NCBI GenBank assembly: GCA_025451455.1
Contig: JANWKI010000047.1
Coordinates: 1 to 52,681 of the forward strand
DNA: 52,681 nucleotides
Reading direction: 5' to 3'
Origin: Ignavibacteria bacterium
GTDB taxonomy: Bacteria; Bacteroidota; Ignavibacteria; Tepidaquicellales; OLB5
In this document: positions 2,338-42,402 of the stretch, piece after piece
Layout: every line of letters begins with the position of its first letter
Numbering within the stretch: position 1 is the stretch's first letter
Made by a program: the position numbers and the translations under genes
Notes under the pieces: generated by a model
The model's database searches: none
The model's input: only the letters and a program-made list of their open reading frames with translations
What the model was told of the DNA's origin: nothing

Positions 2338-4014
2338 ATGTTTTTATATTTAAGAACAAATTTAAAATTAATCCTGATTTCTTCGGTTTTCTGGATCCTG
2401 CTTTCCCCGTATTTATTTTCGCAGGTAAGCCGTGAATGGGTCAACCGTTTTAACGGTTCCGATAACAGGTTCGATATAGCTTGTTCCATAAAACTGGATG
2501 CCGGTTCAAATATATTTCTTTCGGGCACAACAGCTTCCGCGGGTACATCAACAGATATACTGGCGCTTAAATACAGCCCCACGGGTGCAGTATTATGGAC
2601 AAATGTTTTCAATGGTTTTTCAAATTCCGTTGACCAGGCAAACAGCTCTTACCTGGATGCATTGGGAAATTTTTATATTACAGGCTTTACCTCGGATACA
2701 AGTGATGTACTTAAGATCATTACGATAAAATATTCTTCCGGAGGAGCTATTTTATGGCACAGGGTTTTTTTACCTCCGGCATACAATCAGGGAATGGGAC
2801 AGGCTGTACTTACCGATAATAATTCGAATGTTTATTCCTGCGGGTATATCAGAAGAGCAAACGGCTCGCATACATTAGTTTTATTAAAATATTCACCTGC
2901 CGGAGCTTTGCTGGATACGGCACGGTTCAATATAACAAATTCAAGCAGCGAAATACCTGTATCATTTTGTTCTGATCCAGGCGGCAATATATATATTCTC
3001 GCTTCCACAAACGCTATAAGCGGATCAAATGATATATTGATGTTAAAATATAACCAGGCATTAGATCTTCTCTGGCAGAACACTTTCAGCGGCACTGCAT
3101 CAGGCGGTGATATTCCTGTCCAAATGCTTTTAAGCAATGATAACAAACTTGTGGTATCGGCTTCTGTCTATAATTCAGCCGGCGGGCTTGATTACGGCAC
3201 TTACCGGTTTGATACAAATTCGGTGCTTATCATGCAGTATTTTTACAACGGTACCGGAAATAACCAGGATATACCTTACTCAATTGCTGCGGATGCTGCA
3301 AATAATATCTATGTTACAGGAAGCTCAAGAAATGCAGATACACTTGGCTCGGAAGATATTCTTACTTTAAAGATTGATCCGACCGGGCTGTTGCTCTGGC
3401 AAAGAAGGTATAACGGCACCGGAAGAGGAATGGATTACGGAACTTCAGTTGCTGTTGATAATTCAGGGAACGTATTTGTAGGAGGAACTACCGATAAACA
3501 CGATATTCACCTTGCATATGCTCTTTTGAAATACGGTCCTACAGGCGACCTGTTCTGGCTTGAAGAATACAGCAGGCAGGAAAGATCTGAGGATTTTGTT
3601 TATACAGTTGCAGTTGATAATAATCATAATATATTTGTTACCGGTATAAGTTTTGACAGTACAAGCGATTATGACATTGCTACTATAAAATATTCCGAGC
3701 CAATCGGCATTATTCCTGTTTCAACAGAAGAGCCCCGGAATTTTATGCTCTATCAGAATTATCCAAATCCTTTTAATCCTGAAACGAAGATAAAGTTTGA
3801 TATAGCATTAAACATAGATCGTGTAATTTCAATTGTGAAACTGGCAGTTTATGACTGCACTGGAAGAGTAGTAGCAACACTATTAAATGGGGAGTTGCGG
3901 GCAGGAAGTTATGAATATACATGGAATGCCTTGGATTACCCGAGCGGGATATATTTTTGCGTCCTGAATTCCGGAGGATATACGGAAATTAACAGGATGG
4001 TACTTGTCAAATAG
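2338..4014 (+). CDS. Secreted beta-propeller repeat protein (SBBP-like repeats) with T9SS C-terminal sorting domain
   Basis: N-terminal signal peptide. Repeated ~50-aa units of the type ..ILALKYSPTGAVLW.., ..ITIKYSSGGAILW.., ..VLLKYSPAGALL.., ..ALLKYGPTGDLFW... C-terminus ..YQNYPNPFNPETKIKFDI...GIYFCVL...RMVLVK is a T9SS CTD. Confidence 0.85.
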   Translation: MFLYLRTNLKLILISSVFWILLSPYLFSQVSREWVNRFNGSDNRFDIACSIKLDAGSNIFLSGTTASAGTSTDILALKYSPTGAVLWTNVFNGFSNSVDQANSSYLDALGNFYITGFTSDTSDVLKIITIKYSSGGAILWHRVFLPPAYNQGMGQAVLTDNNSNVYSCGYIRRANGSHTLVLLKYSPAGALLDTARFNITNSSSEIPVSFCSDPGGNIYILASTNAISGSNDILMLKYNQALDLLWQNTFSGTASGGDIPVQMLLSNDNKLVVSASVYNSAGGLDYGTYRFDTNSVLIMQYFYNGTGNNQDIPYSIAADAANNIYVTGSSRNADTLGSEDILTLKIDPTGLLLWQRRYNGTGRGMDYGTSVAVDNSGNVFVGGTTDKHDIHLAYALLKYGPTGDLFWLEEYSRQERSEDFVYTVAVDNNHNIFVTGISFDSTSDYDIATIKYSEPIGIIPVSTEEPRNFMLYQNYPNPFNPETKIKFDIALNIDRVISIVKLAVYDCTGRVVATLLNGELRAGSYEYTWNALDYPSGIYFCVLNSGGYTEINRMVLVK

Positions 4015-4199: not shown

Positions 4200-5240
4200 A
4201 TGAAAAAGCATTTACTTATTGTAATTGCGCTCATTACTCTTGTTGGTTCATTATACTCACAGGCGCAAAGATTAGCTCATTTTGAAAACTGGACAAGTTC
4301 AACATGCGGTCCATGTGCATCAAATAATCCTGCTTTAAAGGTATGGATACAGTCACACTGGAATGCATTGACTGCAGTATCATATCATGTTGGCTGGCCT
4401 TCACCGGGCAATGACCCGATGTATCTTCTTAATCCTTCGGAATCATATGACAGAAGATATTATTATGGTGTAAACGCTGTTCCGGAAGGAATCCTGCAGG
4501 GGACACAGATATACATTGGAAGTCCGTTTAACTGGACAAGTTTGAGCGCATTTTATGATTATTATACCGGAAGCGGTGCGGCATCATCAGTACAGGTTGT
4601 AGATACAAGAATTGCCGGTGATTCTATAAAATGTAATGTTACAGTTACTAATTTGTCAACTTTACCGGCCGGAACATACATCATGAGAACGATGGTTGTT
4701 GAAAGATGGGTTGTATACACTACACCTCCTGGAACAAACGGCGAGACAATTTTCGGAAACGTTTTCAGAAAATCACTGCCAAGTGTTGCAGGCACACCTA
4801 TTTCAACAGCACCTGGAACTTATAATTTTGAGTTCAGGTATAAAGTAGTTGCTCCGTGGAATGACTCTTCAATTTATACTATGGCTTTCATACAGAACGA
4901 TGTTGACAAGATGGTTCTTAATTCAGGACGTCCGGGAATGTTAGTTGGAATAGAGCCGTATATCAACAATACACCGGCAAGTTTTTCACTCAGCCAGAAC
5001 TATCCTAATCCGTTCAACCCAACAACCAACATTAAATTTACTTTGCCGAAAGAAAGCAATGTAACTTTAAAGGTTTATGATATGCTGGGCAGCGAAGTCA
5101 GGACACTTGTTGACGGAAATCAAAGAGCCGGAAGCTATAACATTTACTTTGATGCAGCAAATCTTTCAAGCGGAATTTATTTCTATACCTTAAAAACAAA
5201 TGAATTTGCCGATACAAGAAAAATGATCTTAGTGAAGTAA
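4200..5240 (+). CDS. T9SS-exported thioredoxin-fold-like protein (CGPC motif), paralog 1
   Basis: Signal peptide. FENWTSSTCGPCASNNPALK resembles the thioredoxin WCGPC active site. YYGVNAVPEGIL resembles the Trx cis-Pro loop (YGIRGIPT). C-terminus SLSQNYPNPFNPTTNIKF...GIYFYTL...RKMILVK is a T9SS CTD. RBS-like GAGAGAGG lies upstream. Confidence 0.8.
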   Translation: MKKHLLIVIALITLVGSLYSQAQRLAHFENWTSSTCGPCASNNPALKVWIQSHWNALTAVSYHVGWPSPGNDPMYLLNPSESYDRRYYYGVNAVPEGILQGTQIYIGSPFNWTSLSAFYDYYTGSGAASSVQVVDTRIAGDSIKCNVTVTNLSTLPAGTYIMRTMVVERWVVYTTPPGTNGETIFGNVFRKSLPSVAGTPISTAPGTYNFEFRYKVVAPWNDSSIYTMAFIQNDVDKMVLNSGRPGMLVGIEPYINNTPASFSLSQNYPNPFNPTTNIKFTLPKESNVTLKVYDMLGSEVRTLVDGNQRAGSYNIYFDAANLSSGIYFYTLKTNEFADTRKMILVK

Positions 5241-5349: not shown

Positions 5350-6393
5350 ATGAAAAGAACTTACATTATATTTTCAATTTTAGCGCTAGTGCTTTCCTTT
5401 AATTCTGCAAAAGCTCAGTTTGTCAGGAAGGTGTTGTTTGAAGAAGCAACCAATGCTTCCTGCGGACCCTGCGCTGCAAACAACCCGGCATTAAAAGCAT
5501 ATATTGATTCCAAAGGTGATTCTATTATTGCGATCATGTATCACGCAAGTTTTCCGGGTACTGATGCAATGTACCTTCACAATCCTTCACAGAACTCCGA
5601 AAGGTATGCTGCATATTACGGAATGAATGCAATGCCATGGCTGAATGTAGACGGAATAATCAATGATGTGTGGCCATTTTCACTTGCAAACCTCAACAAT
5701 GCATACTTCGGCAGGCTTGCCATTCAGGCGCCGCTTACTATAACAGTTGTTGACCAGAGAATTGCAGGTGACTCCATCAGGGCAACAGTTACCGTGAACC
5801 TTCCTTCAAGCCTCCCTGCCGGTAATTACAAGCTGAGGATAATGGCAATTGAAAAATGGGTGATTAACCCTGTACCACCGGGCAACAACGGCGAAACACA
5901 GTTTGAACACGTTTTCAGAAGGGCATTTCCAAATACTGCAGGTACAACATTTCCCGGGATTTCAGGAAATCATATTTATACATTTACCTATAAGCGCGAT
6001 CCGGTTTGGAATGATTCATCAATAATAACAGTTGCATTCATACAGAATGACAACAATAAGGAAGTGCTCAATGTCGGCAAGGGTTCTGTTATCCCGACGG
6101 GCATAAATAATACAAATTCTGAAGTGCCGGGTTCTTTTTCTCTTTCACAGAATTATCCGAACCCGTTCAACCCCGTGACAAATATTACATTCGGGCTTCC
6201 GGTTTCATCTCATGTTACGCTGAGGGTGTTTGATATTCTTGGCAGGGAATCTGAAGTTCTTGCAAACGGTGATTTCAGCGCCGGGAAATATAATGTTGAT
6301 TTTGATGCTTCAAGTTTAAGCAGCGGTTTATATTTTTACACATTAGAAGCCGGTGATTTCAGAGAAACCAGAAAGATGTTGTTGATAAAGTAA
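5350..6393 (+). CDS. T9SS-exported thioredoxin-fold-like protein (CGPC motif), paralog 2
   Basis: Collinear with 4200-5240 over the full length: SCGPCAANNPALK, YYGMNAMP, VVDQRIAGDSI, PPGNNGET, WNDSSI..AFIQND, SLSQNYPNPFNPVTNI. Confidence 0.8.
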   Translation: MKRTYIIFSILALVLSFNSAKAQFVRKVLFEEATNASCGPCAANNPALKAYIDSKGDSIIAIMYHASFPGTDAMYLHNPSQNSERYAAYYGMNAMPWLNVDGIINDVWPFSLANLNNAYFGRLAIQAPLTITVVDQRIAGDSIRATVTVNLPSSLPAGNYKLRIMAIEKWVINPVPPGNNGETQFEHVFRRAFPNTAGTTFPGISGNHIYTFTYKRDPVWNDSSIITVAFIQNDNNKEVLNVGKGSVIPTGINNTNSEVPGSFSLSQNYPNPFNPVTNITFGLPVSSHVTLRVFDILGRESEVLANGDFSAGKYNVDFDASSLSSGLYFYTLEAGDFRETRKMLLIK

Positions 6394-12177: not shown

Positions 12178-13848
12178 ATGAAAGGAAGAACAATGTATAA
12201 ACAATTTCTGCTTGCAATTACGGCAGTACTGTTAATGTGGTCTTCGGTATTTTCAGCCGCATGGACAGATACTTTACAGGGAAACATTACTACAACAGTC
12301 ACGCTTCAAAACACAAAAAGATACCTGATGCTGGGAACAATTTTTGTTAAGCCGGGAGGCGACCTAGTGATTCCCGCTGGTACGGTGCTTTTTGGAGATA
12401 AGCCATCAAAAGCAGCAATAGTTGTTGAAAGGGGCGGTTTGATACATGCTAACGGTTCAGCAGGAGCGCCGGTCATATTTACAAGCTCCCAGAATATCGG
12501 AAACAAAAGCGCCGGAGACTGGGGCGGGATCATTTTACTTGGCAAGGCTAGAATAAACACGGCATCGGGCGCTGATACAGCCGTAATAGAAGGTATTACT
12601 CCCGCTGTTTATTTCGGAGGACAAAATGATGCAGATAACTCCGGCGTAATGAGATACTGCAGGATTGAATATTCAGGTATTGCACTCTCTCCAAACAATG
12701 AAATCAACGGTTTAACAATGGGCGGAGTTGGTTCCGGTACTGTTATTGAATATATCCAGGTAAGCTGGAACGGCGATGATTCATTTGAATGGTTTGGAGG
12801 AACAGTGAATTGCAAATATTTGGTTTCTTACATTCCTGTTGACGATGAATTGGATACTGATTTTGGCTTCAGAGGCAAAATTCAATTCGTTTTGGCGGTC
12901 AGAAAACCCTCAGTTGCAGATATCAGCGGCTCAACATGTATGGAGTCAGATAATAACAATGGTCCAAATTACAATAGCCCAAGAACACAGCCTCATATTT
13001 CCAATGTTACTTCAATCGGGCCGAAGCAATACGATACCAGTGTTGTGAACCCAAACTTCACAAGGGGTGCGCATATCAGAAGAAATACGCTTGCAAGCTT
13101 TTATAATAGTGTAATTATGGGGTGGCCTCAAGGCATTCTATACGATGGAACTGGAGTTCATTGCGCTATTCAAAATGATTCTTCAAGAGTAAAAGCAAAC
13201 ATATTCGCAGGATGCTATACAGGTTTCAGTGCTGTGCCAACACCTACAGGCTGCGGATTTGATGCAACTGCTTATACTACCGCAAACAACACTATTTTAC
13301 CAACGACGGTTGCTGCAATGTTGAGCAATCCTTATGGTAATGTGTCAACAGGCAGCTATTCAACTGGAAATTTCTATCCTTCGGCAGGTTCACCTGCTTT
13401 ATCAGGTGCTAATTTTACATATCCCGGGATAAACGATCCGTGGTTTACTGTAACAACTTACAGAGGAGCGTTTGACCAGAACAGCACCTGGGCAAACGGA
13501 TGGACGAATTTCAGGCCGGATTCGGTAGATTATTCTATAATAGGCATTGAGCCGATCAGCAATATTGTTCCGAAGCAGTATAGTCTGCAGCAGAATTACC
13601 CGAATCCTTTTAACCCGACAACAAATATTAAGTTTGATGTTGCCCAGACGGGATTTGCTAAGCTTGCAGTATTTGATGTTTTAGGAAGAGAAGTAACTAC
13701 AATAGTAAGCGAAATCTTAAGATCAGGCCAGTACCAGGTAAGCTACAATGCATCTAATTTACCTAGCGGTGTTTACTTCTATCGTTTAACGGTCACAAAT
13801 GAGAGTACAACATGGTCAGCAACTAAAAAACTGATGCTGGTAAAATAA
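12178..13848 (+). CDS. Uncharacterized secreted protein with T9SS C-terminal sorting domain, partner of the upstream TonB-dependent receptor
   Basis: Signal peptide; the start may be ATG 12193 (MYKQF..). Conserved-looking motifs DWGGIILLG, DDSFEWFGG, DDELDTDFGFRG. C-terminus SLQQNYPNPFNPTTNIKFDV...GVYFYRL...KKLMLVK. Confidence 0.8.
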   Translation: MKGRTMYKQFLLAITAVLLMWSSVFSAAWTDTLQGNITTTVTLQNTKRYLMLGTIFVKPGGDLVIPAGTVLFGDKPSKAAIVVERGGLIHANGSAGAPVIFTSSQNIGNKSAGDWGGIILLGKARINTASGADTAVIEGITPAVYFGGQNDADNSGVMRYCRIEYSGIALSPNNEINGLTMGGVGSGTVIEYIQVSWNGDDSFEWFGGTVNCKYLVSYIPVDDELDTDFGFRGKIQFVLAVRKPSVADISGSTCMESDNNNGPNYNSPRTQPHISNVTSIGPKQYDTSVVNPNFTRGAHIRRNTLASFYNSVIMGWPQGILYDGTGVHCAIQNDSSRVKANIFAGCYTGFSAVPTPTGCGFDATAYTTANNTILPTTVAAMLSNPYGNVSTGSYSTGNFYPSAGSPALSGANFTYPGINDPWFTVTTYRGAFDQNSTWANGWTNFRPDSVDYSIIGIEPISNIVPKQYSLQQNYPNPFNPTTNIKFDVAQTGFAKLAVFDVLGREVTTIVSEILRSGQYQVSYNASNLPSGVYFYRLTVTNESTTWSATKKLMLVK

Positions 13849-34227: not shown

Positions 34228-35244
34228 TCAGTATTCAAATCTCGCAAATGCATTTTCAAACAGATCCTTTCCGGAGCTCCCGATGGATGTGTTTTTGAAT
34301 TTCAAATAAGCTGTATAACCTATCATCGCTGCGTTATCAGTGGAATATATTTTCTGCGGGAAAAAGATCCGGTAGCCCTCATTTGTATATTTCATAAACT
34401 CGCTTCTCAGTTTTGAGTTTGCAGAAACACCGCCTGAAACTGCAATGCTTTTGATCCCAAGTTTTTTTGATGCCAGAATGGTTTTTTCAACAAGTGAAGC
34501 AACTACAGCCCTCTGGTAAGATGCACAAATATCATTTAAAGGCAGTGCATCTGCAGCCGCTTCGCCAAATTCCTTCCTGAGAAAATAAAGCAGTGATGTT
34601 TTGATCCCGCTGAAGGAAAAATCATAAATATTTTCTTTGAGAGAAGAAACAGGGAACCTGTGATAGTTCTCATTCCCGGTTTTTGAAAGTTCATCTATCA
34701 GAGGACCACCCGGGTAATCAAGCCCCAGCATCTTAGCTGCTTTATCAAATGCTTCCCCGGCAGCATCATCCTGTGTTCTTCCAAGCACAGTATGGCTCTC
34801 ATATCCTTTAACATGAAAAAGTATTGTGTGGCCGCCGGATACAACAAGTGCAATGAAGGGAAACTCAACTTCTTCATTCCCGATGAAACACGAAAACAAG
34901 TGTGACTCAATATGATTTATTGCAGCAAAAGGTTTTTTCATTGCTATAGAAAAAGATCTTGCGTAATTATACCCAACAAGAAGTGAACCTATCAATCCGG
35001 GTCCCTGAGTGGCTGCTACGAGATTCACTTCAGTTGTATCTATCTTTGCCTCGCTGAATGCCTTTCTGACGATCATATCGATCGATTTAATATGCGCTCT
35101 GGATGCAAGTTCAGGCACGATACCCCCGTAATCTTTATGAAATAATTGTGATGAAATAATATTCGAAAGGACATTATTATCTTTCAGTATTGCAGCAGAG
35201 GTCTCGTCACAGGAAGTTTCTATTGCCAGTGTAGTCAGATTCAT
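34228..35244 (-). CDS. tsaD: tRNA N6-adenosine threonylcarbamoyltransferase TsaD
   Basis: LAIETSCDETSAAI.., ..GGIVPELASRAH.., ..VVSGGHT.., ..VSGGVSAN.. Confidence 0.95.
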   Translation of the reverse strand: MNLTTLAIETSCDETSAAILKDNNVLSNIISSQLFHKDYGGIVPELASRAHIKSIDMIVRKAFSEAKIDTTEVNLVAATQGPGLIGSLLVGYNYARSFSIAMKKPFAAINHIESHLFSCFIGNEEVEFPFIALVVSGGHTILFHVKGYESHTVLGRTQDDAAGEAFDKAAKMLGLDYPGGPLIDELSKTGNENYHRFPVSSLKENIYDFSFSGIKTSLLYFLRKEFGEAAADALPLNDICASYQRAVVASLVEKTILASKKLGIKSIAVSGGVSANSKLRSEFMKYTNEGYRIFFPQKIYSTDNAAMIGYTAYLKFKNTSIGSSGKDLFENAFARFEY

Positions 35245-35510
35245 CTACAAAAATATCATTTTTTGGGCTATTTTGCAATTGTTTCTATATAAGCACATCA
35301 AAATCTAACCGGAATCGTTATTTATACCGTAGTAGAGGTATTGGAAAAGGTAGCTTATGGGACTAATTTAGTACTTCCAAAAGTATTGTTATTGGATAAT
35401 TGAGAAATTTTGCTTATAATTGTGATTGGGGGAACAAGTGATATTAATGGCACTTACAGCTATTTTATAAGATACTTTTTAAGTCAAGTATTGTATTATT
35501 ACGAATATAA

Positions 35511-36827
35511 ATGAAAGATATGCTCAAAAGATTACTCCCGCTTTTCCTGCTTTTTATCTTACTCTTTACATCTAAGGTTTTTTCACAATCCTTAGCAGTT
35601 TCCGGGTATTATTCCCCAAAGATCGTTTTAAAGGAAAAAGCTGCAGAATTCTTCGGAAGTAACGTATATTCTAATTCCGATCAGGTCAGGTTTGATTTAG
35701 CATATTTATATACGGATATGAAACAGCTCACCAAAGCAAGGGGGCAGTTTGAATATGTAAACAGGAATCCAACAAGCGAGAAGAAAATTCAGCAGTCAAA
35801 AGAGTCCTATACAGATAACCAGTTAAATCCTAATAATAGTAATCAAACTACTCCGATATACAGTCCTGGGGTTACTTATTCTGATTCCGGATATTACTAT
35901 TTAAACCAGGGGAATAAAACCAAAGCCGCGCAGTTTTTTGAGCTTCAACTGAAGGATAACCCCAATGATTACAAGGTTAGATTGCAGCTGGGATATATTT
36001 ATTATGACCTCAAAAAACTTAACAGTGCTTTAACTCATTTCGATTATGTAGGAAAACACTCTGATAATGAACAGGACGCTGAGACTGCCCGTTCATCGGC
36101 TTATGTAATAAGGGAAGAACTAGCATTAACGGCACCGAGATCGCTTGACCTGTACTTCTATAATTACTATGATTCATACCAGAAAAACTACATTGCCAAC
36201 CTTGTAATGCATGTGAACTTTAAAATAGCAGATAATTTTTATGGCGGCCCTTATCTGGATCTATACACCGATACACGCTCAAGCCCGGCTTTAATATATA
36301 ACGACAGGTTTTTTGAACTCGGCGGATTCATGAGGTACAGTATCCTGAGGAACTTATTTATCGAGTTCAGGATAGGATATACCCGCCAGATAGATCTTGA
36401 TACAAGCAGGATCAATATAAAGCCGATGATAATTTATTTTACCAGGTTCGGCGATGCAAAAGTGTATTCAGCCGGCAAGTCTTCTTCAAAGATAAGCCTG
36501 TACATGGATTTTTATTCCGCTGCAATGTATGACTATAAATATGACAATGCATTCCTGCAGGCAACAATGCAGCAGGTTCTCCGCTTCAGCACCGGGGGAT
36601 ATTCATACATTGAGCCTTATCTTGTTGAATCAGCACAGTTTGACAGCCGCAGGCTTGATTACAATAATTATTCCGAGCTCGGCGGCGGTTTAAGGTTCAA
36701 ACCCAATGTGATGTTCTTTCCGGTTATCTTTGTTGAGCCGACTTACAAAGTTTATTTTTACGGAAACAGAGAAAATTCTTTCCAGGTAAAAGCAGGATTC
36801 ATGTTTAACTTCAGAACTAAATTATAA
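35511..36827 (+). CDS. Outer-membrane protein with N-terminal TPR-like repeats and C-terminal beta-barrel-like half (NfrA/PgaA-type secretin candidate)
   Basis: Signal peptide. Two TPR-like units (..FDLAYLYTDMKQLTKARGQFEYV.., ..LQLGYIYYDLKKLNSALTHFDYV..). The C-terminal half is rich in alternating aromatic residues and ends ..VKAGFMFNFRTKL. 9 nt upstream of the NfrB-like synthase. Confidence 0.6.
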   Translation: MKDMLKRLLPLFLLFILLFTSKVFSQSLAVSGYYSPKIVLKEKAAEFFGSNVYSNSDQVRFDLAYLYTDMKQLTKARGQFEYVNRNPTSEKKIQQSKESYTDNQLNPNNSNQTTPIYSPGVTYSDSGYYYLNQGNKTKAAQFFELQLKDNPNDYKVRLQLGYIYYDLKKLNSALTHFDYVGKHSDNEQDAETARSSAYVIREELALTAPRSLDLYFYNYYDSYQKNYIANLVMHVNFKIADNFYGGPYLDLYTDTRSSPALIYNDRFFELGGFMRYSILRNLFIEFRIGYTRQIDLDTSRINIKPMIIYFTRFGDAKVYSAGKSSSKISLYMDFYSAAMYDYKYDNAFLQATMQQVLRFSTGGYSYIEPYLVESAQFDSRRLDYNNYSELGGGLRFKPNVMFFPVIFVEPTYKVYFYGNRENSFQVKAGFMFNFRTKL

Positions 36828-36836
36828 AATAACCGT

Positions 36837-38171
36837 ATGCAGGAAGTTTTCACAATATTACTATGGATCTGTTCGGTACTGCTGATTGTCAGCGGAATAG
36901 ACGACGTGCTGGTTGACATGCTTTACTGGTTCAACAGGTGGAAGTATATACGAAGCCTTCCGCAAATGGATGATGTGCTTGCTGCCGATGAAAACAAAAT
37001 TGCGCTTGTTATCTGCGCATGGCGAGAGTATAAGGTCATAGGAAGGACCCTGACCTACGCGCTCAGCAAGATGAGATACAATAATTTTACTATTTTCGTG
37101 GGTATTTACCCCAATGATACAAAGACGCTTGAAGTTGTAAAAAGAATTGCACAGAAGAACAACAAAGTTGTGATATGTGTTAACTCTCACGACGGTCCGA
37201 CCACCAAAGCCGATAACCTGAATAATGTTTATGCATCTGTCAAACGGTTTGAAAATGATAACGCAACACAGTTCAGGATTATATCCATCCATGATTCGGA
37301 GGATTTTATTCACCCCTTAACATTAAAGCTTGATAATTATTTAATCTGCCACCAGGGTGTTGATGCCGTCCAGGTGCCCGTGGTTCCTATAAAAGATGAC
37401 AGAGGCAAGTTCATTCACCGCACTTACTGCGATGCATTTGCTGAAGTGCATTCAAAAGACCTCATTGTACGGCAGGCGCTCAAGGTTTTTATACCGTTTG
37501 CCGGAACAGGTATGTCTTTCAGGCGCGGTATTTTTACTGACCTAGAATCGCACTATACACATGTATTTAACGAGGCTAACCTGACTGAAGATTACGAGCT
37601 CGGCTTAAGGCTCTTTAAAATGGGCTATAAAACCGCCTATGTTAACTTACTTATCGATAAGAAAAATCCCAATTCAAGGGTTGCTACAGGTGAGTATTTC
37701 CCGAACACCTTCTGGGCGGCTGTAAAACAGCGTTCAAGATGGACTGCAGGGATATGTTTCCAGAACTGGAAAATTCACAAGTGGGCAGGAAGCTTTAGGA
37801 CCAAGTATTTCCTGATGAGAGACAGGAAAACGATATTCAGCAATTTTATGGTTCTGCTTTCAAATGTTGTGTTTGCAATGTTCCTGTTATACATGCTCGG
37901 CTTCGGTCTTGGTGTCAGGGTATTCGATTCCGCAGTTGAGCAGAACTCTGCCCTGTGGTTCTTCCTGTGGACATGCTTCTTCCTGATGGTTTGGAGGCTG
38001 CTGCACCGCTTTATATTTACTTACAGCTGGTACGGGCTTAAATACGCTGTTTTCAGTTTAATAAGACTGAACTTCGATAACCTGATTAATTTCTTCGCAA
38101 CTTTCCGCGCTCTGAAAGTTTTTGTGGGAATGAGAAATAAAGTTGTGTGGGAATCAACTGAGCATTATTGA
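36837..38171 (+). CDS. NfrB-family membrane glycosyltransferase (GT2 exopolysaccharide synthase), short form without C-terminal receptor domain
   Basis: Blocks matching E. coli NfrB as I recall it: SGIDDVLVDMLYW, FVGIYPND, TTKADNLNNV, IHDSEDFIHP, LTEDYELGLRL, EYFPNTFWAAVKQRSRWTAGICFQNWKIHKW, YFLMRDRK, NLINFFATFRALK, WESTEH. The protein ends at 444 aa. Confidence 0.85.
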   Translation: MQEVFTILLWICSVLLIVSGIDDVLVDMLYWFNRWKYIRSLPQMDDVLAADENKIALVICAWREYKVIGRTLTYALSKMRYNNFTIFVGIYPNDTKTLEVVKRIAQKNNKVVICVNSHDGPTTKADNLNNVYASVKRFENDNATQFRIISIHDSEDFIHPLTLKLDNYLICHQGVDAVQVPVVPIKDDRGKFIHRTYCDAFAEVHSKDLIVRQALKVFIPFAGTGMSFRRGIFTDLESHYTHVFNEANLTEDYELGLRLFKMGYKTAYVNLLIDKKNPNSRVATGEYFPNTFWAAVKQRSRWTAGICFQNWKIHKWAGSFRTKYFLMRDRKTIFSNFMVLLSNVVFAMFLLYMLGFGLGVRVFDSAVEQNSALWFFLWTCFFLMVWRLLHRFIFTYSWYGLKYAVFSLIRLNFDNLINFFATFRALKVFVGMRNKVVWESTEHY

Positions 38172-38194
38172 TTTTTCATATTTAATTTAAGTTT

Positions 38195-38228
38195 GGGGGA
38201 TAGCCTGTAAAAGACTTTCCCCTTTTTT
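38195..38228 (+). terminator. Possible weak intrinsic terminator after the NfrB-like gene
   Basis: GGGGGA...TTCCCC short stem with a long loop, followed by TTTTTT. Confidence 0.35.
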
Positions 38229-38298
38229 ATAACATAGTTACAGCAATACTCACACATAAACGGTGTATTTGTGCGTTTATTCTTAAATTGCATATAAT

Positions 38299-38306
38299 TA
38301 TCTTTG
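38299..38306 (+). promoter_or_regulatory. TAnnTTTG motif upstream of wecB
   Basis: TATCTTTG lies 25 nt before ATG 38332, after a terminator-like hairpin. Confidence 0.3.
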
Positions 38307-38331
38307 TTATTGACTTGGGAAAACATACTAA

Positions 38332-39513
38332 ATGGGTTTAGATAGTATCAACGCAGGGCTTAGACCGGAAGAGCTTAAAGGAAAGAAAGTAATTGTATTC
38401 TTTTTTGGCACACGCCCTGAAATAATAAAATTGTTTGTTTTATACAGAATTCTGAAGAGGTCTGAAGAATTTTATCCCTTGTTATATAATACCGCACAGC
38501 AAAAGATCTCCGGCGATATCCTCTCCAATATCGGCATTCATCCCGATATTACAGCAACCGAAAAACCTAACCGGTCTTCTGACTTAAACGAGCTTATAGC
38601 ACACCTGCTCAACGACTTCAACGAAAAGTTCGGCGAAAAGTCACCCGTTAGAAAAGAACACATCCACGGCATAATTGTTCAGGGTGATACGGCTTCAGCA
38701 TTTGCCGGCGCGCTGTGGGGCTTCCTGAACCAGATACCGGTATTTCACGCCGAGGCCGGGCTCAGAACACTCGATAAGATGAATCCCTTCCCCGAAGAGT
38801 TCATGCGCGAATCAGTTGCCCGTATGGCAACATGGCATTTTGCACCGAAGGGCATTAACCGCGATAACCTGATAAACGAAGGCATAAAACACGATAAGAT
38901 ATTTGTTATTGGCAATACAATTAATGACGCAATTTTTACTCTGATAAAAGAAAAGAAGATAAAAGAACCCAAACAAAAGAATTATATATTAAGCACTTTC
39001 CACAGGCGCGAAAACTGGAATAATGTATCGGCATATGCCAAAATACTGAATTCTTTAATGAATGATATTAAGGGCTATACTGAAATACTTCACCTGATGC
39101 ACCCGAACCCGCTTATCCAGAGGGCTTTTGATGAAGTTACCAACGGGAACGGGCATAAGAAGCTCGTGATAATGAAACCAATTCACGATTATTTCGAAAT
39201 GCTGGGATATGTAAAAAATGCGGGATGTATCCTGACGGATTCCGGCGGCCTGCAGGAAGAATCACTCTTCTTCAATGTTCCCTGCGGTGTCCTGAGGAAA
39301 ACTACCGAGCGCCCCGAAGTTCTGAAAAAAAACGCAAAGCTTCTGCCGATTGAGTGCGGTGAAATTACAACTTTCTTAACCGAGGCTGTGCATTACAGGC
39401 AGGTTCACCTGGACAAATACAACTATACTTACGGCTTTGGTGATTCAAGCTATCTTATCTATGAACTCCTGAAGAAATTCTACGGCATCGAAACTGAGTT
39501 CTCTTTCCTGTAA
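38332..39513 (+). CDS. wecB: UDP-N-acetylglucosamine 2-epimerase (non-hydrolysing)
   Basis: ..FFFGTRPEIIKL.., ..HAEAGLRT.., ..DSGGLQEE.. signatures. Confidence 0.9.
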   Translation: MGLDSINAGLRPEELKGKKVIVFFFGTRPEIIKLFVLYRILKRSEEFYPLLYNTAQQKISGDILSNIGIHPDITATEKPNRSSDLNELIAHLLNDFNEKFGEKSPVRKEHIHGIIVQGDTASAFAGALWGFLNQIPVFHAEAGLRTLDKMNPFPEEFMRESVARMATWHFAPKGINRDNLINEGIKHDKIFVIGNTINDAIFTLIKEKKIKEPKQKNYILSTFHRRENWNNVSAYAKILNSLMNDIKGYTEILHLMHPNPLIQRAFDEVTNGNGHKKLVIMKPIHDYFEMLGYVKNAGCILTDSGGLQEESLFFNVPCGVLRKTTERPEVLKKNAKLLPIECGEITTFLTEAVHYRQVHLDKYNYTYGFGDSSYLIYELLKKFYGIETEFSFL

Positions 39514-39669
39514 ATTTTCGTTACAACATTCAATTTTTCTCTTTATTGCAATTAAATGTCACATAAATTCATGACGTATAGCCGTGAATTTAAATGCTTG
39601 ATTATTCAATCAAAAGTTATCATTTTGTAGAAATCAGAAGTTTTTCTTTGAGAAATAATATTCTTAACC

Positions 39670-40299
39670 ATGATAAAACTGGTTATGAAATATGTTCTTC
39701 TTTCTGCTGCGTTCATAAGTCTATCCTACTGCCAGGATCCTGATGTTACAAACAGGTCAGGTCAGCTGGAAGCAGGCAATTCCCTTTTGAATAATTCATC
39801 TAAAAATGTTAGTTTATCCAGAGAAGAAAACCCGGATGCAAAGATTATACCCGTGCTTTACAGATATTCAACAGAAGATCTGAAAGCGGAGAGGATGGCT
39901 AAAGAAGAGCGCTCGTTTAACATTGTATCTTCATTCAGGGGAAATATAAGGTTCGGGGGCTTTTGGGATAAATATGCGATCATAAATTTTACTCCCGTAA
40001 TGTATATTAAGCCTTTTGAATTTCTGAGCATTTATGCAAACCATAACCTGAGTTATTTTGTCCCGGTAAAAGCTGCAGCTGAACACTTTAAGCTCATGGC
40101 AATTCAAAGCACTGCAGTGCTTGCAATTGATAATTTTGTAAAGCATCTTCTTCCGGCAAGCTCCATTGTAAAATCTATCTGTTCATTTGCATTAAAGAAT
40201 CTTGTGATATTCTGCATGAAGAAGCCTGTAATTGAAGGCGGAAGTGATCATATACTGGAATTTGACCAGCTGTATTACTCGCTCAGTGTAAACTTTTAA
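39670..40299 (+). CDS. Hypothetical exported or lipoprotein-like protein
   Basis: Signal sequence ..AAFISLSYCQDPD. No recognisable domain. Same strand as, and downstream of, the Nfr-like module. Confidence 0.55.
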   Translation: MIKLVMKYVLLSAAFISLSYCQDPDVTNRSGQLEAGNSLLNNSSKNVSLSREENPDAKIIPVLYRYSTEDLKAERMAKEERSFNIVSSFRGNIRFGGFWDKYAIINFTPVMYIKPFEFLSIYANHNLSYFVPVKAAAEHFKLMAIQSTAVLAIDNFVKHLLPASSIVKSICSFALKNLVIFCMKKPVIEGGSDHILEFDQLYYSLSVNF

Positions 40300-40306
40300 A
40301 TGGATA

Positions 40307-40360
40307 CTTGTAGCCGCAACACTCATAAGTATGCTTGTAGCCGCAACCTTCAGGCTGCGT
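40307..40360. repeat. 14-nt direct repeat (CTTGTAGCCGCAAC x2, period 27); the second copy forms an imperfect hairpin
   Basis: Identical copies at 40307-40320 and 40334-40347. The second continues CTTCAGGCTGCG, giving an imperfect CGCAACC/GGCTGCG stem. Confidence 0.85.
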
Positions 40361-40400
40361 GTTTAAGTTTCCCTCTTTTTCCACAGAAATAGAAGTTCCG

Positions 40401-40435
40401 GCCAAACAAAAAAGGCAGGTAAAAATACCTGCCTT
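40401..40435 (-). terminator. Intrinsic terminator for the minus-strand hydrolase gene
   Basis: AAGGCAGGT (40412-40420) and ACCTGCCTT (40427-40435) form a perfect 9-bp stem. On the minus strand it is followed by TTTTTTGTTTGG. Confidence 0.75.
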
Positions 40436-40461
40436 CTAAATGAATAAATACCCTTATATCA

Positions 40462-42402
40462 CTACTTCACAAGTATCATCTTTTTTATCCATGTAAAATT
40501 ACCATTTGAATTCCCGGCACTGCCTACTGTCATTTTGCAGAAATACACACCCGATGAATATGCCGATGCGTTCCACTCTGCCTCATAAATCCCCGGGGAA
40601 AAATTCTTATCTGCAAGTACTGTCAGTTCTCTTCCGGTAACATCATATACAGCGATCTTAACATAATTATTTCTTCCCGTCGAGGGTACTTCAAACCGTA
40701 TCTTTGTAACCGGATTGAACGGGTTAGGATAATTCTGCTGCAGACTGAACTCTTTTGGTATTTCCGCGGATATCTGGTTTATTCCGATCGCAAAATTAAT
40801 GAGCGGCAGCTCGATGTAAGATTTTGCATTTCCGCTGATAAATATCTTATTTGTACCCTGCTTCAATACCGGAAGCATGAATGGATTTGTCCTCAGGAAA
40901 GGATCTGTCTGGTAGCCGTTTGTATAGTATGGCACGTTATCCAGGTTAGTAACCTTTACCCTTATTTTGCTGCCCTGTGAAAAGACATGGCTATATGACT
41001 GGCCGTTTACATATTTTTCCTTTGACTGGTTCGCAGTATAATACCTGTCAGTCCAGTTTATTCTTGTAACAAGCTTTTCCTGCCCGTTTGGCCTTACCTC
41101 CCAAATCTGCATGTTGTACTGGCACAGCCCGTTTGCGCTGGATGAGTAATATAAATAAGCATACGGAGTTCCCGCAAGCGTTGCGTTCTGCAGAAGCCCG
41201 GGCGTATCAAAAACAGTTTCATTCTTTCTGAATTTTGCATCAAAGAGCGCACCGCGGAATTCTGTGTTGACAAGGTAATCCATTGTAACATTGGGGTCAA
41301 GTATATCATTGTTAAAGCTTACATCTGTTTGCGTGCCTCCGTAACTGTTAGGCAGTATCTGCCCGCCGGGGTGAAAATACAGTTTGGTATTCTGCACTCC
41401 CGAAGGAGGCCATGTTGGTGTCTGCTGCCTTGCCCAGCTCCACGTGCTGTCTGCAATGGGGAACCTGCTTGAAGCATAAGTAAATTTTTCATTAACGTTC
41501 ATCACGTTATTAGAAATTCCCTTCAGATGATAATCCGTCCAGTCGGAAAAAACATTCTCTTTAAATAGTTCTTCTGCATAAACATAGTCGCTTCCATGTC
41601 CGTCTGTTGTTCCGTAATACATCCTGTAATTATTGTAGGGCAGAATATATGCGCTTCTTATCATGCCAAGCGTATTGAAGAATTTATCCTGCCAGCAATT
41701 AACAATGAGTATCGGTATCTGGCAATTAGCAGCCTGGCTGATAAAATCCCGGTTAATAGGCAGGTAATATGCAAGGCTGTCCCATTTATCCGGCTGGCTT
41801 GAAAGCGCCCATATCCTGAAGCGGCTGACAAGCGGATTATACCTTACTATATTTGACGCATAACTTACCGTCCAGAGGAATGTCATTTTTATGCCGCCGT
41901 TCTCTATCCAGCTGCTTCCCTGTTCAGGAGAAGCCATATCAGGCATAATTGTTTTTACCTGCATTCCGGTGCAGACCGCCATGAATGGGATTACCCCGCC
42001 CTGTGACCCGCCATGAATTCCTATCCTGTTATCGTTTGTGTTAGCATCATTTTTGATGTAAGTCACAACCTGTTTAAGATCATTGGCTTCGATTGTGCTT
42101 ATGAAGTTCGACTGCCCCTCGGAAATACCCTGCCCGCGCATGCTGTAAACGAAAGAGTAATACCCGTAAGAAGCATGGTCTTCCGCTTCTTCCATTTCCG
42201 AATATTTTGATAGCCCGTAACCGTGAGTAACAATAATGCAGGGCCACCCGCCGGATGGCGGCGTTCCGTTTGGAATATACTTTGTACAGTCAAGCTTAAT
42301 GCCGTCAGTTAGAGTGAGCATGAAATCTACACGCGTAAACGAGAGGGAAACAATATTTATCAGTGAGAAAGCAATAAAACAAATGAATAACAGTGTTTTC
42401 AT
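40462..42402 (-). CDS. Alpha/beta hydrolase of the CocE/NonD (peptidase S15-like) type with T9SS C-terminal sorting domain
   Basis: Signal peptide. ..DGIKLDCTKYIP....PCIIVTHGYG.., ..YSMRGQGISEG.., nucleophile elbow IGIHGGSQGG. C-terminus SLQQNYPNPFNPVTKIRFEV...GVYFCKM...KKMILVK. Confidence 0.8.
   Translation of the reverse strand: MKTLLFICFIAFSLINIVSLSFTRVDFMLTLTDGIKLDCTKYIPNGTPPSGGWPCIIVTHGYGLSKYSEMEEAEDHASYGYYSFVYSMRGQGISEGQSNFISTIEANDLKQVVTYIKNDANTNDNRIGIHGGSQGGVIPFMAVCTGMQVKTIMPDMASPEQGSSWIENGGIKMTFLWTVSYASNIVRYNPLVSRFRIWALSSQPDKWDSLAYYLPINRDFISQAANCQIPILIVNCWQDKFFNTLGMIRSAYILPYNNYRMYYGTTDGHGSDYVYAEELFKENVFSDWTDYHLKGISNNVMNVNEKFTYASSRFPIADSTWSWARQQTPTWPPSGVQNTKLYFHPGGQILPNSYGGTQTDVSFNNDILDPNVTMDYLVNTEFRGALFDAKFRKNETVFDTPGLLQNATLAGTPYAYLYYSSSANGLCQYNMQIWEVRPNGQEKLVTRINWTDRYYTANQSKEKYVNGQSYSHVFSQGSKIRVKVTNLDNVPYYTNGYQTDPFLRTNPFMLPVLKQGTNKIFISGNAKSYIELPLINFAIGINQISAEIPKEFSLQQNYPNPFNPVTKIRFEVPSTGRNNYVKIAVYDVTGRELTVLADKNFSPGIYEAEWNASAYSSGVYFCKMTVGSAGNSNGNFTWIKKMILVK

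Follow-up and report, generated by a model that had tools for sequence, protein, structure and literature searches.

Organisation of the locus

We analysed a 52,681-nt stretch of DNA from an Ignavibacteria bacterium (contig JANWKI010000047.1; its full length is called the window here), in which four genes at positions 35511-40299 had been predicted from the letters alone to form a compact exopolysaccharide module resembling the NfrA, NfrB and WecB trio of Escherichia coli. Our results support this Nfr-type reading, with caveats, and make it likely that the locus is a minimal Nfr-type, synthase-dependent exopolysaccharide system, in which a small putative outer-membrane porin accompanies an NfrB-family glycosyltransferase of family 2 (GT2) and a UDP-N-acetylglucosamine (UDP-GlcNAc) 2-epimerase of the WecB type. 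The four open reading frames (ORFs) were all found on the + strand at the coordinates predicted for them, and the 9-nt gap between the first two was the same. The nearest relatives of the window proteins belonged exclusively to metagenome-assembled genomes (MAGs) of Ignavibacteria/Ignavibacteriota, and therefore the non-proteobacterial context proposed for the module stands. The four genes, taken from the ORF listing, and the two genes that bound them are the following:

34228-35244, − strand: tsaD, divergent, bounding the module on the porin side
35511-36827, + strand: gene of the putative porin, 438 amino acids (aa); Sec signal peptide, two tetratricopeptide repeat (TPR) modules of ~90 aa (aa ~40-207) and a predicted 12-strand beta-barrel (aa 210-437), from Pfam/NCBIfam, AlphaFold2 (AF2) and Foldseek
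36837-38171, + strand: NfrB-type synthase gene, 444 aa; N-terminal transmembrane (TM) helix, cytoplasmic GT-A domain, C-terminal TM helices and no MshEN domain, from BLASTP, NCBIfam and hydropathy
38332-39513, + strand: wecB, 393 aa; proposed to supply UDP-N-acetylmannosamine (UDP-ManNAc), from TIGR00236, Pfam Epimerase_2 and alignment to E. coli WecB
39670-40299, + strand: gene 4, 209 aa; secreted protein restricted to Ignavibacteria, an accessory neighbour, from homologue search, AF2 and alignment
40462-42402, − strand: convergent S15-family peptidase gene with a type IX secretion system (T9SS) sorting tail, the far boundary

The synthase belongs to the NfrB family

When the product of the second gene was compared with NfrB of E. 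coli K-12 by BLASTP, its aa 13-443 aligned with NfrB residues 23-475 (37% identity, E 2e-89), and its D153 (HDSED), D252 (TED) and W302 (QRSRW) fell opposite NfrB D169, D267 and W330, whose mutation abolishes infection by phage N4 and which are hence essential (PMC8669469). The protein matched Pfam Glyco_tranf_2_3 (E 4e-39) as well as three models of the NfrB group, namely NF011305 (392 bits over profile positions 1-453 of 486, just under the equivalog cut-off of 409), NF012033 (349 bits) and NF008411, NfrB itself (323 bits, E 5e-96, profile positions 11-470 of 723). In the same family-model scan the cellulose synthase model CelA reached 17 bits (E 1e-3), and the poly-N-acetylglucosamine (PNAG) and hyaluronan synthase models gave no match. 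The comparison of E 5e-96 (NF008411) and E 2e-89 (BLASTP) with E 1e-3 (CelA) places the synthase with NfrB and not with the cellulose, PNAG or hyaluronan synthases, as predicted, and on these alignments it is an NfrB-family GT2.

Hydrophobic segments were located at aa 3-32 (two overlapping windows), 337-355 and 371-389, positioned as in the E. coli NfrB profile, so that hydropathy reproduced the N-terminal helix and the helices after the glycosyltransferase (GT) domain that are expected of NfrB; the DxD, TED and QxxRW motifs of the GT2 domain were likewise present. The MshEN domain was missing: no Pfam match to it was found in the synthase, the NF008411 score of 323 bits compares with a cut-off of 1170, and the C-terminus (aa 444) aligned with NfrB residue 475, where the linker and MshEN of NfrB start. 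No solved structure with a sequence relationship to the synthase was found. Its Ignavibacteria orthologues are labelled 'phage adsorption protein NrfB' or 'adsorption protein B' by NCBI and JGI. The conserved motifs suggest that the enzyme may be processive, and the genomic linkage to wecB points to N-acetylmannosamine (ManNAc) as the sugar that it would receive.

A second NfrB-like synthase, 56-61% identical to that of the window, was present in the genomes of loci L030, L032, L043 (7001-8335) and L034, with neither porin nor wecB nearby. This copy was preceded by an SLT lytic transglycosylase in L030, L032 and L043 (not in L034), and also by a PAP2 phosphatase gene in L032 and L043; a pair resembling an extracytoplasmic function (ECF) sigma and anti-sigma factor, judged by eye, lay upstream of it in L030, L032 and L043. 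A 299-aa protein encoded upstream of the second copies was considered as an outer-membrane protein on account of its C-terminal F, and was rejected because Pfam identified it as PAP2.

The third gene encodes a WecB-type epimerase

The product of the third gene scored 230 bits with TIGR00236, above the equivalog cut-off of 210, against just 58 bits with the NeuC model, and matched Pfam Epimerase_2 with an E value of 1e-66. It was 31% identical to E. coli WecB from end to end, and the counterparts of K15, D95, E117, E131 and H213 of the E. coli enzyme were all kept, K15 having been demonstrated to be essential (PMC8669472). With the model score over the cut-off and the catalytic residues in place, the predicted identity of this gene is confirmed at the level of sequence: it is a non-hydrolysing UDP-GlcNAc 2-epimerase of the WecB/NfrC type. 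In E. coli, as the original prediction stated, wecB sits in the enterobacterial common antigen (ECA) cluster, distant from nfrBA.

The upstream protein is predicted to be a short TPR-barrel porin

Pfam and NCBIfam matches to the product of the first gene were confined to TPR models, at aa 122-202, and its sole hydrophobic segment was at aa 8-26. The AF2 model, built on a 35-sequence family alignment (predicted local distance difference test, pLDDT, 84.5), consisted of a signal helix, helical TPR modules at aa ~40-105 and 123-207 with about four TPR-like hairpins, and a barrel of 12 beta-strands by DSSP at aa 210-437, where pLDDT was mostly above 90 with two 10-residue blocks at 78-80. In Foldseek searches of the PDB, the barrel matched the 12-strand structures BrkA (3qq2), NanC (2wjq), the KdgM-type VhGalP (8xua), invasin (4e1t) and EstA (3kvn); for the full-length model, matches with modest TM-scores were obtained to BcsC (9b8a) and PelB (9h80_M), both porins of the TPR-plus-barrel type. 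A TPR region followed by an outer-membrane beta-barrel, as had been proposed for this protein, is thus confidently predicted by AF2. TPR repeats and a C-terminal barrel are the defining architecture of synthase-dependent porins.

The relationship to NfrA was a different matter in sequence. No match to NfrA_C (PF13283) was obtained in Pfam at E <= 0.1; the 35-sequence profile aligned with E. coli NfrA in hhalign over a TPR stretch only (probability 6.6%), and phmmer matches with E. coli NfrA were confined to the TPR parts. A distant relative, P0375, showed a sub-threshold NfrA_C match (22.6 against 25 bits) in a different stretch, which is too weak to use. Sequence homology to NfrA was accordingly rejected, the similarity being that of TPRs. 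The solved structures related to the porin by sequence were TPR proteins only. TPR_Slam scored 17 bits (cut-off 35.2) and was faint in the relatives, and DUF560, the Slam barrel, gave no Pfam match. With 438 aa against the 990 of E. coli NfrA (44%), the protein is indeed less than half as long, as had been remarked. The term NfrA-like is therefore apt for the architecture (signal peptide, TPR repeats, C-terminal barrel, gene adjacent to that of the synthase) and for the partnership with the synthase, and inapt for family membership, given the missing NfrA_C match, the hhalign result and the 12 strands instead of 16. In the predicted structure, this is a protein with the architecture of a synthase-dependent porin that departs from the NfrA family in sequence and in strand count. 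Its barrel may well serve as a real export pore, and we call it the porin here.

Relatives of the porin accompany NfrB homologues

A word-indexed search yielded 137 relatives of the porin, all of Ignavibacteria type. Their barrel was constant and their lengths were ~324-340, 435-445 or ~550 aa, because they bear one, two or three TPR modules. Short forms were those of L007, L008, L011, L012, L017, L019 and L020, and long forms those of L004 and L044-L053. The shortest keep only ~60 aa between signal peptide and barrel, and therefore the TPR part can hardly span the periplasm.

A barrel-only profile gave just 61 matches at E <= 1e-3 among 1.84 billion representative proteins, and the weak ones (E 1e-10 to 1e-3) were again TPR-plus-barrel proteins, of ~390-600 aa. 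The genomic context was examined for five weak matches, of which three were informative and one (L058) was too short. In all three informative loci an NfrB homologue lay directly downstream of the porin relative (E 1e-10 to 1e-5): in L057 a 405-aa porin overlaps a GT of 472 aa (38% identity to E. coli NfrB), in L059 a 431-aa porin precedes a GT with 42% identity, and in L060/L061 Epimerase_2 and a 549-aa porin are followed by a GT of 688 aa that carries Pfam MshEN and whose identity to E. coli NfrB is 36% across residues 8-716. The remote porin-bearing contigs span 36-63% in G+C content (38-63% for those with an NfrB homologue beside the porin) and thus represent several lineages. The adjacency of NfrB homologues elsewhere indicates that the short TPR-barrel protein is a recurrent partner of NfrB synthases, in porin-first order.

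A differing cluster was seen in L056 (1-8304, 57% G+C). It comprises wecB (divergent), two genes of unknown kind, a GT2 of 418 aa that does not resemble NfrB, an unknown protein of 636 aa, a distant relative of the window porin of 432 aa and, on the opposite strand, a protein resembling YbcH (E 1e-6 in comparison with E. coli YbcH). Of the six remote loci, the only ones searched with E. coli YbcH, L056 alone gave a match.

Conservation of the module in Ignavibacteriota

Fifty synthase loci from GTDB species representatives were compared and their neighbours scored by tblastn; the 28 loci with a GT at least 77% identical to the window synthase were taken as orthologous. The porin gene was immediately upstream in 25 of the 27 assessable orthologous loci, being absent from L021 and L033 as confirmed by ORF listing. 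The wecB gene lay within 500 nt of the synthase in 21 of 26, was displaced by 3.9 kb in one, on account of two inserted T9SS-tail genes, and was absent in four. In the Ignavibacterium/Tepidiaquacella clade (GT 47-50% identical), where L040, labelled as the cultured Ignavibacterium album, has the same trio, the porin was upstream in 7/7 loci and wecB adjacent in 8/8, and in a clade with a split synthase the corresponding figures were 8/8 and 4/8. The porin and synthase genes, which are 9 nt apart in the window, overlap by 1-4 nt in relatives. The proposal that the three genes travel as neighbours was thus borne out in the orthologous Ignavibacteria loci (25/27 for the porin, 21/26 for wecB).

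Among orthologues, median identity to the window proteins was 88.5% (GT; range 77-91%), 85% (WecB), 69% (S15 peptidase), 64% (TsaD) and 61% (porin). Synthase and epimerase are therefore more constrained than a universal tRNA-modification enzyme, and this conservation suggests, as far as sequences can tell, that their product has a core role in the envelope of Ignavibacteriota.

In the sister Ignavibacteria clade mentioned above, the synthase is divided into two adjacent ORFs with the break just before the TED motif (L004 9647-12928, L048 6992-10138, and also L044, L046 and L049-L053). ORF A contains positions 2-175 of the 230 of Glyco_tranf_2_3 together with a TM helix, and its tail is weakly SPOR-like (peptidoglycan-binding); ORF B has ~360 acidic residues and, after these, positions 181-230 and the TM helices, with an additional DUF772 transposase-like match in L004. 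L049 has two tandem synthase copies, each of them split. The identical break point in at least nine loci speaks against decay and for an enzyme that is functional though split.

Transcription units and control

Analysis of the spacers and of the gene ends gave the following features:

35245-35510, strand unassigned: tsaD-porin spacer, with the probable promoters and operators of both genes (conservation, inverted repeat)
38195-38229, + strand: terminator-like hairpin and U-run just 3' of the synthase stop, imperfect in the window (−12.4 kcal/mol, z −0.95)
38258-38278, + strand: candidate operator with the inverted repeat AAACG-N11-CGTTT, from aligned synthase-wecB spacers
38299-38306, + strand: Bacteroidetes-type -7 box TAnnTTTG (TATCTTTG), 25 nt before the wecB ATG
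40437-40410, − strand: strong intrinsic terminator of the S15 peptidase gene

The tsaD-porin spacer showed 78% mean column identity over ~280 nt in 10 species whose porins are only ~60-68% identical, and its conserved blocks include an ATACC-N8-GGTAT inverted repeat. RNAalifold proposed 13 pairs in this spacer, none of them with compensatory changes, and a structured leader RNA was rejected on that ground. With neither a covarying RNA structure nor an Rfam match, the spacer is probably dense promoter/operator DNA to which some regulator would bind.

At the position of the hairpin that follows the synthase, relatives have stems of 12-15 bp with differing sequence, each followed by a U-run, and the minimum free energy of the whole segment was −15.8 to −23.2 kcal/mol in four of them. 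The inverted repeat in the synthase-wecB spacer, which reads AAAACG-N12-14-CGTTTT across species, and the TAnnTTTG box were each kept in 8-10 of 12 aligned species. TAnnTTTG is the known consensus of Bacteroidetes sigma-A, and the box may be the wecB promoter. The terminator-like hairpin together with this promoter-like box implies that wecB is likely to be under its own, possibly regulated, promoter. Probably, then, the porin and synthase genes form one bicistronic unit and wecB a separate one, so that the trio would comprise two transcription units instead of one operon.

No receptor domain for cyclic di-GMP (c-di-GMP) was found in any of the four module proteins with Pfam and NCBIfam, and an Rfam search of 35100-40600 at permissive thresholds returned neither a c-di-GMP riboswitch nor any other RNA above threshold. 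A riboswitch or other known RNA in place of MshEN was rejected, the sole Rfam match being a sub-threshold one to the Salmonella small RNA STnc390 at 40402-40453 on the − strand (36 bits against a gathering score of 50), which is almost certainly nothing more than the hairpin of the S15 peptidase terminator (40437-40410). Transcriptional control may take the place of allosteric control by c-di-GMP.

Gene 4 and the S15 peptidase

Gene 4 is a real gene, whose family comprised 85 proteins; every one of them came from an Ignavibacteria-type MAG, and Pfam matched none. The gene was present in 11 of the 28 orthologous loci and evolves fast (43-68% identity in loci whose GT is 86-91% identical). In its product a signal peptide and a variable linker are combined with a C-terminal domain of ~130 aa, which is conserved and ends in YY-x-[VL]-S-[IV]-R-F. 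The suggestion that it is lipoprotein-like did not hold: apart from the window protein, only the two relatives nearest to it have the putative lipobox cysteine, S/T/A-Q-D taking its place in most other aligned homologues, and a lipoprotein was rejected for this lack of conservation. Similarity to YbcH was absent (E 0.14), and the AF2 model, of moderate quality (pLDDT 66), had no fold match; as it is not conserved in the module either, gene 4 was also rejected as a YbcH analogue. It is an accessory neighbour, not a core member of the module.

In three Ignavibacteria clades, and also in the distant L055, a Peptidase_S15/PepX-type alpha/beta hydrolase with a T9SS tail stands beside the module (window 40462-42402 on the − strand, L004, L035-L041, L044, L048 and L050-L055), and in the deeper clades it is co-directional and immediately follows wecB. 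This adjacency may be plain synteny, or the peptidase may be secreted and have the polymer as its substrate. Elsewhere in the window, C-terminal sorting domains of the T9SS occur four more times (3583-4011, 4944-5237, 6100-6390 and 13540-13845); they are 39-49% identical to the S15 tail and fit a lineage with a rich T9SS secretome.

Proposed pathway and alternatives

According to the pathway that we propose, WecB would convert UDP-GlcNAc into UDP-ManNAc in the cytoplasm, the inner-membrane NfrB-like GT2 would polymerise a ManNAc-containing chain and thread it across the inner membrane during synthesis, and the chain would exit via the small TPR-plus-barrel protein encoded directly upstream. 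The three observations that the original prediction named as contrary to it (a GT2 clustering with cellulose, PNAG or hyaluronan synthases, an upstream protein other than an outer-membrane barrel, a trio not conserved in related genomes) were not made.

Several points weigh against this pathway. The polymer of the N4 glycan receptor (NGR) is chemically undefined in E. coli itself. Neither a periplasmic scaffold (YbcH) nor a polymer-modifying enzyme was found, the YbcH query not having been run on the window or the Ignavibacteria loci. The 12-strand count derives from a single AF2 model; established polysaccharide export porins have, to our knowledge, 16-18 strands, all of them more than twelve, and we know of no 12-strand exporter of a long polymer. 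Sequence homology between the porin and the barrels of NfrA, PgaA, BcsC and PelB was undetectable. Two species (L021 and L033) have the synthase and wecB with no porin at the locus; wecB is not beside the synthase in 4/26 orthologous and 4/8 split-clade loci, and a terminator-like hairpin and a promoter-like box part the two genes.

The position of wecB bears on a first alternative, in which the synthase and porin export a polymer other than one of ManNAc (e.g. GlcNAc or mixed) and wecB is a syntenic neighbour serving a lipopolysaccharide (LPS) or capsule-like glycan pathway. The promoter-like box of its own, the hairpin ahead of it, its absence from some loci and its 3.9-kb displacement in one would all agree with such a neighbour. 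The order of tsaD, mgtE, PAP2 and S15 peptidase genes is likewise syntenic, and therefore adjacency alone is weak evidence within this phylum. However, linkage of the type wecB-porin-nfrB or nfrB-wecB recurs outside Ignavibacteriota (L060/L061, L056 and L055), nfrB-wecB linkage has been reported across proteobacteria (PMC8669469), and the GT and WecB are similarly, and unusually, conserved in comparison with TsaD. We regard this alternative as rather unlikely.

A second alternative concerns the porin, which might be not a glycan pore but a Slam-like or other factor for outer-membrane assembly or transport, or a small-solute channel of the NanC/KdgM kind, so that the polymer would stay periplasmic or cell-associated or would exit by another route. 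The weak TPR_Slam matches, the best barrel matches (12-strand autotransporter and KdgM/NanC structures, not 16-strand exopolysaccharide porins) and the porin-less loci L021 and L033 point in this direction. Against it, TPR_Slam stays far under its cut-off with no DUF560 barrel, the TPR plus C-terminal barrel architecture finds BcsC and PelB among its full-length fold matches, and the coupling of porin and synthase is tight (9-nt gap or overlap) and kept in three deep Ignavibacteria clades and in other phyla, which together leave this possibility improbable. That the GT2 is non-processive and glycosylates a lipid or other membrane acceptor, like HpnI-like or other lipid-modifying GT2 enzymes, is very improbable indeed: a weak HpnI match (E 0.028), few TM helices (~3-4) and a conservation of 77-91%, as for a core envelope function, stand against the QxxRW (QRSRW) and TED motifs of processive synthases, the end-to-end alignment with NfrB, whose GT activity makes the N4 receptor glycan (PMC8669469), and the partnership with an outer-membrane barrel.

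Beyond the Nfr-type exopolysaccharide system, which remains our preferred reading, a wider proposal can be made tentatively, and we hold it to be doubtful as a whole. The porin would define a distinct family of outer-membrane polysaccharide porins, the smallest known, lying outside current Pfam/NCBIfam models and partnering NfrB synthases with or without MshEN in several phyla, porin-first; and the glycan of Ignavibacteriota would be a constitutive, c-di-GMP-independent core component, comparable to a 'common antigen' rather than to a facultative biofilm matrix. A core envelope glycan, if true, would explain why the synthase and epimerase are conserved above the universal TsaD.

The Nfr-type reading would extend the pathway from proteobacteria and rare Gram-positives into the Fibrobacteres-Chlorobi-Bacteroidetes (FCB) group. 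Its natural minimal version (synthase, small porin and epimerase, all lacking a second-messenger domain) could offer an easier setting in which to study the chemistry of the Nfr polymer and the coupling of NfrB synthases to the outer-membrane pore. The locus would also mark a likely phage receptor in Ignavibacteriota. If the 12-strand prediction is true, the known size limit for polysaccharide export barrels would come down.

Comparison with known systems

The NGR pathway of E. coli has been described by Junkermeier & Hengge 2021 (PMC8669469) and Sellner et al. 2021 (PMC8669472). In it NfrB is a GT2 with MshEN and NfrA a TPR protein with a 16-strand barrel, and YbcH and WecB are further components of the pathway, which c-di-GMP activates and whose product is presumed to be a ManNAc polymer (PMC8669469, PMC8669472); the GT activity of NfrB is required for the N4 receptor glycan (PMC8669469), and NfrA, PgaA and BcsC are all described as 16-strand barrels (PMC8669472). 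The window resembles this system in its homologous synthase (37% over the GT and TM module, essential residues kept), in a WecB-type epimerase as presumed substrate supplier, and in an outer-membrane partner with signal peptide, TPR and C-terminal barrel encoded beside the synthase. It differs in that the synthase lacks the MshEN c-di-GMP receptor (444 against 745 aa), the porin is shorter (438 against 990 aa), lacks NfrA_C and is predicted to have 12 strands instead of 16, and no YbcH homologue occurs among the four genes as identified (gene 4 was compared with YbcH). The gene order is porin-synthase, compared with nfrB-nfrA-ybcH in E. coli, wecB is in cis, and the host belongs to Ignavibacteria, in the FCB group. 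The cis arrangement of nfrB and wecB is not new, having been reported across proteobacteria in species without another wecB (PMC8669469), and this linkage is the published argument for UDP-ManNAc as substrate (PMC8669469, PMC8669472).

MshEN is missing from 136 of 1,841 NfrB homologues (PMC8669469). The window synthase matches the length and domain content of these MshEN-less proteins (PRK14716 / bacteriophage N4 adsorption protein B; NF011305-NF011307), but its 392 bits are under the cut-off of 409. In the searchable literature we found no work on the function of any MshEN-less member, or of any member in FCB bacteria, and nothing on Nfr systems in Ignavibacteria, Bacteroidetes or the FCB group, the published range of Nfr being proteobacteria and rare Gram-positives (PMC8669469, PMC8669472).

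The systems for PNAG (PgaCD/PgaA), cellulose (BcsA/BcsC), Pel (PelF/PelB) and alginate (Alg8/AlgE-AlgK) share the logic of an inner-membrane GT2 leading to an outer-membrane TPR/barrel protein. Their porins have 16-18 strands and long TPR domains, unlike the window porin, and they are activated by c-di-GMP and use periplasmic modifying enzymes, neither of which was found in the window module; in sequence the synthase is only remotely similar to theirs (CelA E 1e-3). The KdgM/NanC channels and autotransporter/invasin translocators are the best structural matches for the barrel, but they have no sequence similarity to the porin and lack an N-terminal TPR or a glycan-synthase partner. Slam, a lipoprotein translocon of TPRs and a 14-strand DUF560 barrel, differs from the porin both in TPR_Slam score (17 against 35.2 bits) and in DUF560, which the porin does not have.

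With a GT2 synthase and a predicted outer-membrane TPR/barrel porin side by side, the module has the two components of the general class of synthase-dependent exopolysaccharide secretion. New in this locus are the phylum, its minimal composition and the very strong conservation that synthase and epimerase show; also new is the insight that NfrB synthases of several lineages have as their partner a short porin family, distinct in sequence and predicted to form a 12-strand barrel.

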